Virus record (IMG/VR): IMGVR_UViG_3300028805_000048
Reading direction: 5' to 3' (one strand)
Source: a virus
Lineage: Duplodnaviria > Caudoviricetes
Length of the DNA stretch: 64,000 nt
In this document: positions 35,604 to 35,839 of the stretch, piece by piece
Numbering within the stretch: position 1 is the first letter of the stretch
Layout of the letters: each line of letters starts with the position of its first letter
Translations under genes and position numbers: made by a program
Notes under the pieces: generated by a model
What the model was told of the DNA's origin: nothing
What the model saw: the letters and a program-made list of their open reading frames with translations, nothing else
The model's database searches: none

Positions 35604-35777
35604 ATGAAAAAGAAAAAACGAATAAAAACAGGTGAAGAAAGAATAATTCTATTTAATCTTTATCACAATAAAATATATCGACACAAGGTAATAAAAAATA
35701 AAAAAAGAGAACAAAAGAAGTTCAATATAAATAAAGAGATTGGTTATTATTCAAGTTGTTATCTATTAACTGTTTAA
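35604..35777 (+). CDS. ArfA-like alternative ribosome rescue factor, 57 aa (not in ORF track)
   Basis: AAAGGA RBS; LYHNKIYRHKVIKNKK aligns by eye with Arf[17 protein letters not shown]; long hairpin over the 3-prime end; hydrophobic tail. Confidence 0.6.
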   Translation: MKKKKRIKTGEERIILFNLYHNKIYRHKVIKNKKREQKKFNINKEIGYYSSCYLLTV

Positions 35778-35839
35778 ATAATAACCAATTTTCTTTTATT
35801 AAATTTGTTTTTTTTTGATTATTATATGGTGTTAAAATA

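Follow-up and report, generated by a model that had tools for sequence, protein, structure and literature searches.

Alternative ribosome-rescue factors decide whether bacteria survive when trans-translation is lost or overloaded, and they count as candidate drug targets. In Escherichia coli the factor ArfA has 72 aa, and its truncated form, about 55 aa long, is active. ArfA (YhdL; PF03889) depends on RF2 for alternative ribosome rescue and belongs to the gamma- and some beta-proteobacteria. A 2024 survey of >15,000 genomes confines it to Gammaproteobacteria, part of the Betaproteobacteria and the B. subtilis group; among 2,376 Alphaproteobacteria it found none with arfA, and it recorded arfB in ~85% of Alphaproteobacteria (PMC11633108). 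The specificity of ArfA for RF2 is explained by a hydrophobic patch, made up of Leu19, Leu24 and Phe25, that binds Trp319 of the RF2 switch loop (Demo et al., PMC5378476).

It is established that stop-less mRNAs are the templates for ArfA and BrfA and that trans-translation keeps both products low (PMC10107115, PMC11633108); the first-pass annotation of the locus studied here had likewise treated it as established that both mRNAs end before the stop codon and that tmRNA restrains the products. BrfA (YqkK) from Bacillus subtilis is alike in design to the system that we propose below, being a small RF2-dependent factor, made from a stop-less mRNA and restrained by trans-translation (PMC11633108, PMC6881298). 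ArfT from Francisella tularensis is alike in proposed role, as a tiny release-factor-dependent rescue factor (PMC6299226); unlike the factor proposed here it can use either RF1 or RF2.

Here we analyse a window of 64,000 nt from an IMG/VR virus record (IMGVR_UViG_3300028805_000048; Caudoviricetes), which is 157 kb long and 66% complete, so that the phage genome should be roughly 240 kb in size. The window is A+T-rich (~25–33% G+C) and includes a tRNA island at 30869–35272, with 17 tRNAs called by ARAGORN and one extra tRNA recognised by Rfam, at the end of which sits an ORF encoding a basic protein of 57 aa (Table 1). The first-pass annotation, made from the letters alone, had already singled out this ORF as an unannotated, basic, 57-aa reading frame in a tRNA island, with a hydrophobic tail and a long hairpin at about 35730–35800 covering its last codons and its stop, and had set it beside the core of E. 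coli ArfA. These descriptions hold: the translation is an exact match, the tail reads YYSSCYLLTV, the arms of the hairpin lie at ~35734–35751 and ~35778–35795, and the ArfA core was quoted correctly, as judged against retrieved ArfA sequences. Searches of Pfam, NCBIfam and PHROGs, and of the PDB with phmmer, returned nothing relevant for the single ORF protein.

Table 1: Coordinates of the ArfA-like ORF, its parts and its flanking signals, and of one bacterial relative. Positions are those of the window unless a locus is named.
Feature	Position	Strand	Basis or remark
Shine-Dalgarno-like AAGGA, 7 nt 5′ of the ATG	35592–35596	+	Read from sequence
Basic 57-aa ORF (P0001), ATG start, member of an uncatalogued ArfA-like family	35604–35777	+	Translation; homologues
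Codons 17–35 (FNLYHNKIYRHKVIKNKKR), aligned with ArfA residues 17–35, including the Leu19/Leu24/Phe25 patch and KNKK	35652–35708	+	Profile alignments; ArfA residue roles from PMC5378476
Codons 36–45 (EQKKFNINKE), basic, with conserved aromatic; candidate counterpart of the ArfA mRNA-tunnel tail	35709–35738	+	Family alignment
Long irregular hairpin, ~23–26 pairs, over codons 44–57 and the stop; candidate RNase III-type cleavage site	35734–35795	+	Folding; conserved in relatives
TAA stop, at the border of loop and 3′ arm of the hairpin	35775–35777	+	Read from sequence
U-rich run 3′ of the hairpin; may mark intrinsic termination past the stop	35790–35816	+	Read from sequence
Bacterial family member	L024 340–495		RF2 of the same bacterium is L074

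Several RNAs neighbour the ORF. The extra tRNA (35200–35272), which ARAGORN missed, has a CAU anticodon loop and scores 46.6 bits with Rfam, while a tRNA-Ser at 33458–33549 is called with an uncommon anticodon, ACT, which reads AGU; the window yielded no suppressor tRNA. The stretch that separates the final tRNA from the ORF holds a structured RNA of ~210 nt (35363–35580), which is ~70% identical to non-coding stretches of Prevotella Lak megaphages and of a 735-kb uncultured phage (LR756501). Two of its stems carry compensatory changes (GGTTGG/CCAACC, extended differently, and TGGAGG/CCTCT versus TGAAGG/CCTTC), and its Rfam matches are only weak ones to manA (16.4 bits here, 18.4 bits in Lak). 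We considered this RNA as a leader or riboswitch of the ORF and rejected the idea, because a tRNA comes next in Lak and other family members are without the RNA; given that following tRNA, it resembles a stand-alone RNA gene that belongs to phage tRNA islands.

A word-indexed protein search recovered ten relatives of 57–62 aa, with 63–90% identity to the ORF, and an exhaustive HMM search of 1.84 billion representatives recovered 34 clusters (at 50% identity) that match the ORF family, all of 41–104 aa. The family consensus reads MKK.K..K.R..IA..L..NGL(Y/F)R.KVI.NKKK..KKF(N/D).KKE..YL and is followed by tails free in length and sequence. A tblastn search with the ORF protein against 50,697 phage records gave a chance match only. 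Across the 34 clusters the amino-acid core is kept down to 25–30% identity while the DNA diverges, and on these comparisons the ORF is a real, conserved gene. We give next to no weight to the reading under which the ORF is untranslated and the conserved element is an RNA hairpin or small RNA alone: such a reading would suit a short, A+T-rich ORF next to an RNA structure that is clearly conserved (see below), yet it leaves the persistence of the amino-acid core, the presence of both a start codon and a Shine-Dalgarno box, and the position of the conserved part, upstream of the hairpin, without explanation.

The carriers of the family are phages, mobile elements and small gut Alphaproteobacteria. 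In phages, the gene has phage-like surroundings (UvsW/UvsY, lysozyme, QueC, TROVE and Fic) and, at IMG/VR locus L002, it lies within another tRNA island. The bacterial carriers are metagenome-assembled genomes of 1.5–1.6 Mb from ruminant guts, labelled Alphaproteobacteria; one family copy each was found in 15 of 151 sampled genomes from the carrier bacterial order. In two bacterial genomes, a phage-like variant adjoins serine-recombinase (resolvase) genes (L031 447–1034, L033 1709–2263), which suggests carriage on a small mobile element.

Some further features of these loci deserve record. In a related gut phage of ~206 kb (L004), the ArfA-like gene stands near genes for TROVE (Ro60-like) and Fic and near a tRNA (L004 1–2200, L013 244–1875), surroundings that may represent an RNA-repair or quality-control neighbourhood; a non-coding stretch richer in G+C lies at L004 2560–2760. 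In Lak-A1, a weak match to YrlA (Y RNA-like) scores 24.5 bits (L072 434–548). An IS605-type OrfB/TnpB (Cas12f-like) gene has been inserted two genes downstream of the ArfA-like gene at L005 3717–4916, where gene order is otherwise as in L004. L004 and L010 share a downstream neighbour; we rejected the idea of a conserved downstream partner gene, as the 124-aa neighbour in the window is unrelated to that in L004.

Comparison of the family with ArfA gave two kinds of result. The Pfam model PF03889 (gathering threshold 25.5 bits) produced no match to P0001 or to 35 family members, even at E-values up to 10, nor any match in six frames of the phage record. Profiles built from the family itself were more productive. 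When the close-family profile was searched against 177,635 distinct PDB sequences, it retrieved ArfA chains 5mgp_w, 7oj0_6 and 5u4i_w (E 0.21–0.33) as its sole natural match, the other matches being designed DARPin scaffolds only. Against enterobacterial ArfA sequences, obtained via the annotated E. coli arfA locus, hhalign aligned ORF residues 18–35 with ArfA residues 18–35 (Prob 50–52%, P 1.5e-4). Against a home-built alignment of diverse ArfA sequences, taken from 30 arfA loci out of 401 proteobacterial genomes, it aligned 38 columns, from the N-terminus to NKK, with Prob 66–72%, P 3–6e-5 and a score of 28.2. For comparison, 400 column shuffles of the family scored 8.7 on average (sd 1.9, maximum 16.5) and the reversed family 9.4.

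An HMM of the 30 ArfA sequences gave scores above zero to 33 of the 35 family members, with 18.1 bits for P0153, 14.7 for P0140 and 8.4 for the window ORF, and when run over the 454 open frames of at least 40 aa in the window it ranked the ORF first (8.2 bits, versus 2.3 for the runner-up). Only 8 of 7000 composition-preserving shuffles of the family reached 8.4 bits, the highest attaining 11.2. As the likeness beats both composition-matched and column-shuffled nulls, it is no effect of lysine composition. The profile comparison with ArfA thus did reveal the similarity to a rescue factor that the first-pass annotation had proposed, even though the curated libraries are silent. Statistical support for the link is moderate, with a database-level E of 0.2 and hhalign probabilities of 50–72%, and is to be read in the knowledge that ArfA was picked for comparison after the likeness had been spotted in the first reading.

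The likeness resides in a shared pattern, L.H..(L/I)(F/Y)R..V.KNKK, which lies in register at residues 19–34. Opposite ArfA Leu19, Leu24 and Phe25 the ORF has L19, I24 and Y25; most family members have L at the second of these positions, and the third is F or Y. The aligned positions also cover ArfA Arg26, Val29 and KNKK. The two families are alike in size (57 aa here versus 72 aa), in a basic segment that follows the core and in a hydrophobic, dispensable-looking tail. Unlike ArfA, the new family begins with a lysine run, goes undetected by Pfam, NCBIfam and phmmer, and occurs in phages, in mobile elements beside resolvase genes and in small gut Alphaproteobacteria. The ArfA tunnel segment differs too: KGKGS[YF], the best-conserved motif of ArfA, opens that segment and is present in 31 of 31 canonical arfA loci, yet no family member has it. 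In its place stands NKKK..KKF(N/D), together with an invariant acidic residue, E36, and a second, E45, in most. Lacking KGKGSY, the family would be a divergent relative of ArfA and not a textbook member.

Structures of BrfA are present in the PDB, and the family profile, an indirect check, matched neither BrfA nor ArfT among the PDB chains at E-values up to 10. ArfT is not known to have a stop-less gene design. It is conceivable that the family is an analogue and not a homologue of ArfA, that is, an independently evolved rescue factor like BrfA or ArfT, with a stop-less design, a different release-factor contact and possibly use of RF1 as well as RF2. The replacement of KGKGSY by NKKK..KKF and the failure of Pfam would fit, as would the evidence from BrfA and ArfT that such design and function arose or diverged repeatedly (PMC6881298, PMC6299226). 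We nevertheless judge independent origin very unlikely, because the in-register match covers exactly those ArfA residues that contact RF2 and because ArfA was the one rescue factor that the family profile picked out from the PDB chains.

A line of evidence that is independent of protein sequence comes from the design of the gene. In the window copy, a 101-nt segment with the hairpin folds with a minimum free energy of −21.1 kcal/mol; z is −3.96, and a single shuffle out of 200 did as well. When the same script was applied to the 63 ORFs of at least 100 aa in the window, a hairpin of at least 12 pairs around the stop was found in 12, which makes stem-loops at gene ends a general feature of the source phage. 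A single 3′ hairpin is unremarkable in such a phage; what exceeds chance is its conservation and covariation across relatives.

All close phage relatives have a stem of 21–32 pairs, which starts at codons 39–49, just past the conserved core, covers the last 10–14 codons plus the stop and places the stop in its 3′ arm or loop. From eight diverged phage loci, RNAalifold recovered one 22-pair helix, in which 14 pairs are kept through changes on both sides. Paired cells make up 92.5% of this helix, against 75% in shuffles (0/500) and 36–47% when the partners were slid, and the 14 compensated pairs compare with 7.1 in shuffles (0/500). A box in the 3′ arm, TTTAAAT, is conserved and is read in all three frames among different members, which argues for selection on the RNA and not on the tail peptide. 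Between the window and L014, a compensatory change turns ATTGG/CCAAT into ATGGG/CCCAT, despite the replacement of Ile46 by Met.

Other members vary the arrangement. In L016 the whole hairpin lies within the frame, 9 nt before the stop; L017 and L018 have an in-frame intrinsic terminator of 14 pairs with a U tract, and their stop follows ~25 codons on; and L019 has a G+C-rich in-frame intrinsic terminator, with the stop ~15 nt past the U tract. The distant member L015 has no post-core hairpin that precedes or spans the stop, its sole long 3′ helix (17 pairs) starting at the stop codon.

In bacteria, where we counted gene designs among ten copies located by motif scan, eight copies have a stem of 12–15 pairs with a U tract inside the frame, directly after ..KRKKVDI..(Y/H)(Q/L)PF, and the next in-frame stop follows 3 to >50 codons downstream; in L027 and L028, the frame stays open for 107 codons and meets a convergent gene. 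In the remaining two copies (L031, L033), a long stem encloses the TAA stop within its 3′ arm, and a U tract comes after the stem. For canonical arfA, an identical script was run on the E. coli gene and 30 diverse arfA loci (31 in all). Here a hairpin of 11–37 pairs starts 0–13 codons past KGKGSY and the stop falls after the hairpin, at its end (E. coli) or inside it (e.g. L044, L045, L059, L060, L065–L067). The designs seen in the new family thus cover the range seen in true arfA: some lineages have long stems of a size suited to RNase III, others have intrinsic terminators, and as in arfA the hairpin or terminator starts just past the core and precedes or swallows the stop. At the level of structure, these genes match the arfA-type design that would give a stop-less mRNA, through a covarying hairpin in phages and in-frame terminators in bacteria.

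The gene design also bears on whether the protein has some other job. The ORF might encode a small basic RNA- or ribosome-binding protein, such as a translation modulator or inhibitor or an RNA chaperone for the tRNA island, with its likeness to ArfA due to convergence in a lysine-rich peptide and its hairpin an ordinary processing, stabilising or terminating element between genes. Curated ArfA models do miss the family, KGKGSY is missing, stop-spanning hairpins are frequent in the source phage and the stop of the window copy would outlast plain termination, all of which would be expected on such a reading. We consider it unlikely all the same, given that the likeness is in register and far above composition-matched and column-shuffled nulls and that the hairpin or terminator is placed by where the conserved core ends and not by the stop, from which in bacteria it is separated, in frame, by up to >50 codons. 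Such an in-frame position is not predicted by a plain terminator, and it is the peculiarity by which arfA and brfA are defined; the tails, for their part, vary freely while the RNA pairs covary.

In the window copy itself, the stop lies upstream of the U tract, so plain termination would leave a normal stop and a full 57-aa protein with its hydrophobic tail. The U-rich run was not called by a consensus terminator scan, because the stem is A+U-rich and the loop long. Since plain termination would keep the stop, a stop-less message would require an endonuclease cut in the stem of ~23–26 pairs, which has the size of an RNase III substrate. No gene for a release factor, tmRNA or RNase III was found in the 157-kb record, so the enzymes of the host would presumably be used.

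Genomes from the carrier order provide the context in which the bacterial copies would act. Among the 151 sampled genomes, 149 have two RF-1-domain genes, two have one and none has more, and in the carrier genome G001 the two are RF1 and RF2; as no genome exceeds two such genes, no ArfB was found in this sample. Canonical ArfA is absent from the three genomes of the order that were checked. This pattern fits a need for another back-up factor, yet at the sensitivity used the family turned up in just 10% of the sampled genomes. In a family-bearing bacterium, RF2 retains the tryptophan to which ArfA binds (..NGWGYQIRSY..), a residue that is invariant in 28 relatives and that RF1 of this bacterium lacks. 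Carrier genomes G001–G003 have a two-piece alpha-type tmRNA; this lies on other contigs than the ArfA-like gene, and we therefore rejected the idea that the bacterial copy adjoins ssrA.

Just upstream of the bacterial ArfA-like gene there is a tandemly duplicated element of ~160 nt (L024 1–350, on contig 1 of G001, and L025 1–171), with ..CTCTCCGCCA at its end and a terminator-like hairpin beyond; two genomes have contigs that begin at this element. Neither ARAGORN nor Rfam identified an RNA gene in this repeat.

We consider it likely that the ORF encodes a divergent rescue factor of the ArfA type, probably dependent on RF2, the synthesis of which would be coupled to tmRNA load through a stop-less mRNA, an interpretation supported at the level of sequence and RNA structure. 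From these we infer cleavage of the message, coupling to tmRNA, use of RF2 and a benefit to the phage. The basic middle and C-terminal part of the protein (KNKK..KKF..K) would enter the mRNA tunnel, left empty in a ribosome that has reached the 3′ end of a broken mRNA and stalled, while the hydrophobic positions equivalent to ArfA Leu19, Leu24 and Phe25 would engage host RF2 and so bring about peptide release without a stop codon. In the phage copy, the conserved hairpin of ~22–30 pairs would be cleaved, with host RNase III as the probable nuclease; the transcripts of the bacterial relatives would end at the in-frame terminator. Either route would yield a message without a stop codon, the product of which would be tagged and degraded for as long as host tmRNA has spare capacity. 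Once tmRNA is saturated, as may occur during an infection with heavy mRNA breakdown, a truncated peptide of ~45–55 aa would accumulate and free ribosomes. The suggestion in the first-pass annotation that the locus is a device responsive to stalled ribosomes finds support, as far as sequence goes, in the in-register match to ArfA and in the covarying hairpin and in-frame terminators.

More tentatively, and with confidence that falls a little short of even, we suggest that the ORF represents one branch of a large, unnamed sister family of ArfA, that this family supplies the back-up rescue otherwise missing from small-genome gut Alphaproteobacteria, where no ArfB was found, and that it has been taken up repeatedly by phages and mobile elements. 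The phage copy would sense the tmRNA load of the host through its stop-less message and would free ribosomes from mRNA fragments made by infection or by host defence nucleases, acting as a self-tuning viral rescue device within a tRNA island.

No report of a phage-encoded ArfA was found in the literature that we searched, and the huge-phage papers on translation genes leave ArfA unmentioned. On the strength of our searches, an ArfA-like family with an arfA-type 3′ design is uncatalogued in the standard libraries. If the family works as proposed, ArfA-type rescue would reach Alphaproteobacteria in which no ArfB was found, and phages would carry their own rescue factor beside their tRNAs, with the host-style autoregulation by stop-less mRNA intact. 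A terminator or hairpin inside a tiny basic ORF would then offer a practical signature with which to look for further rescue factors that have escaped profile libraries.
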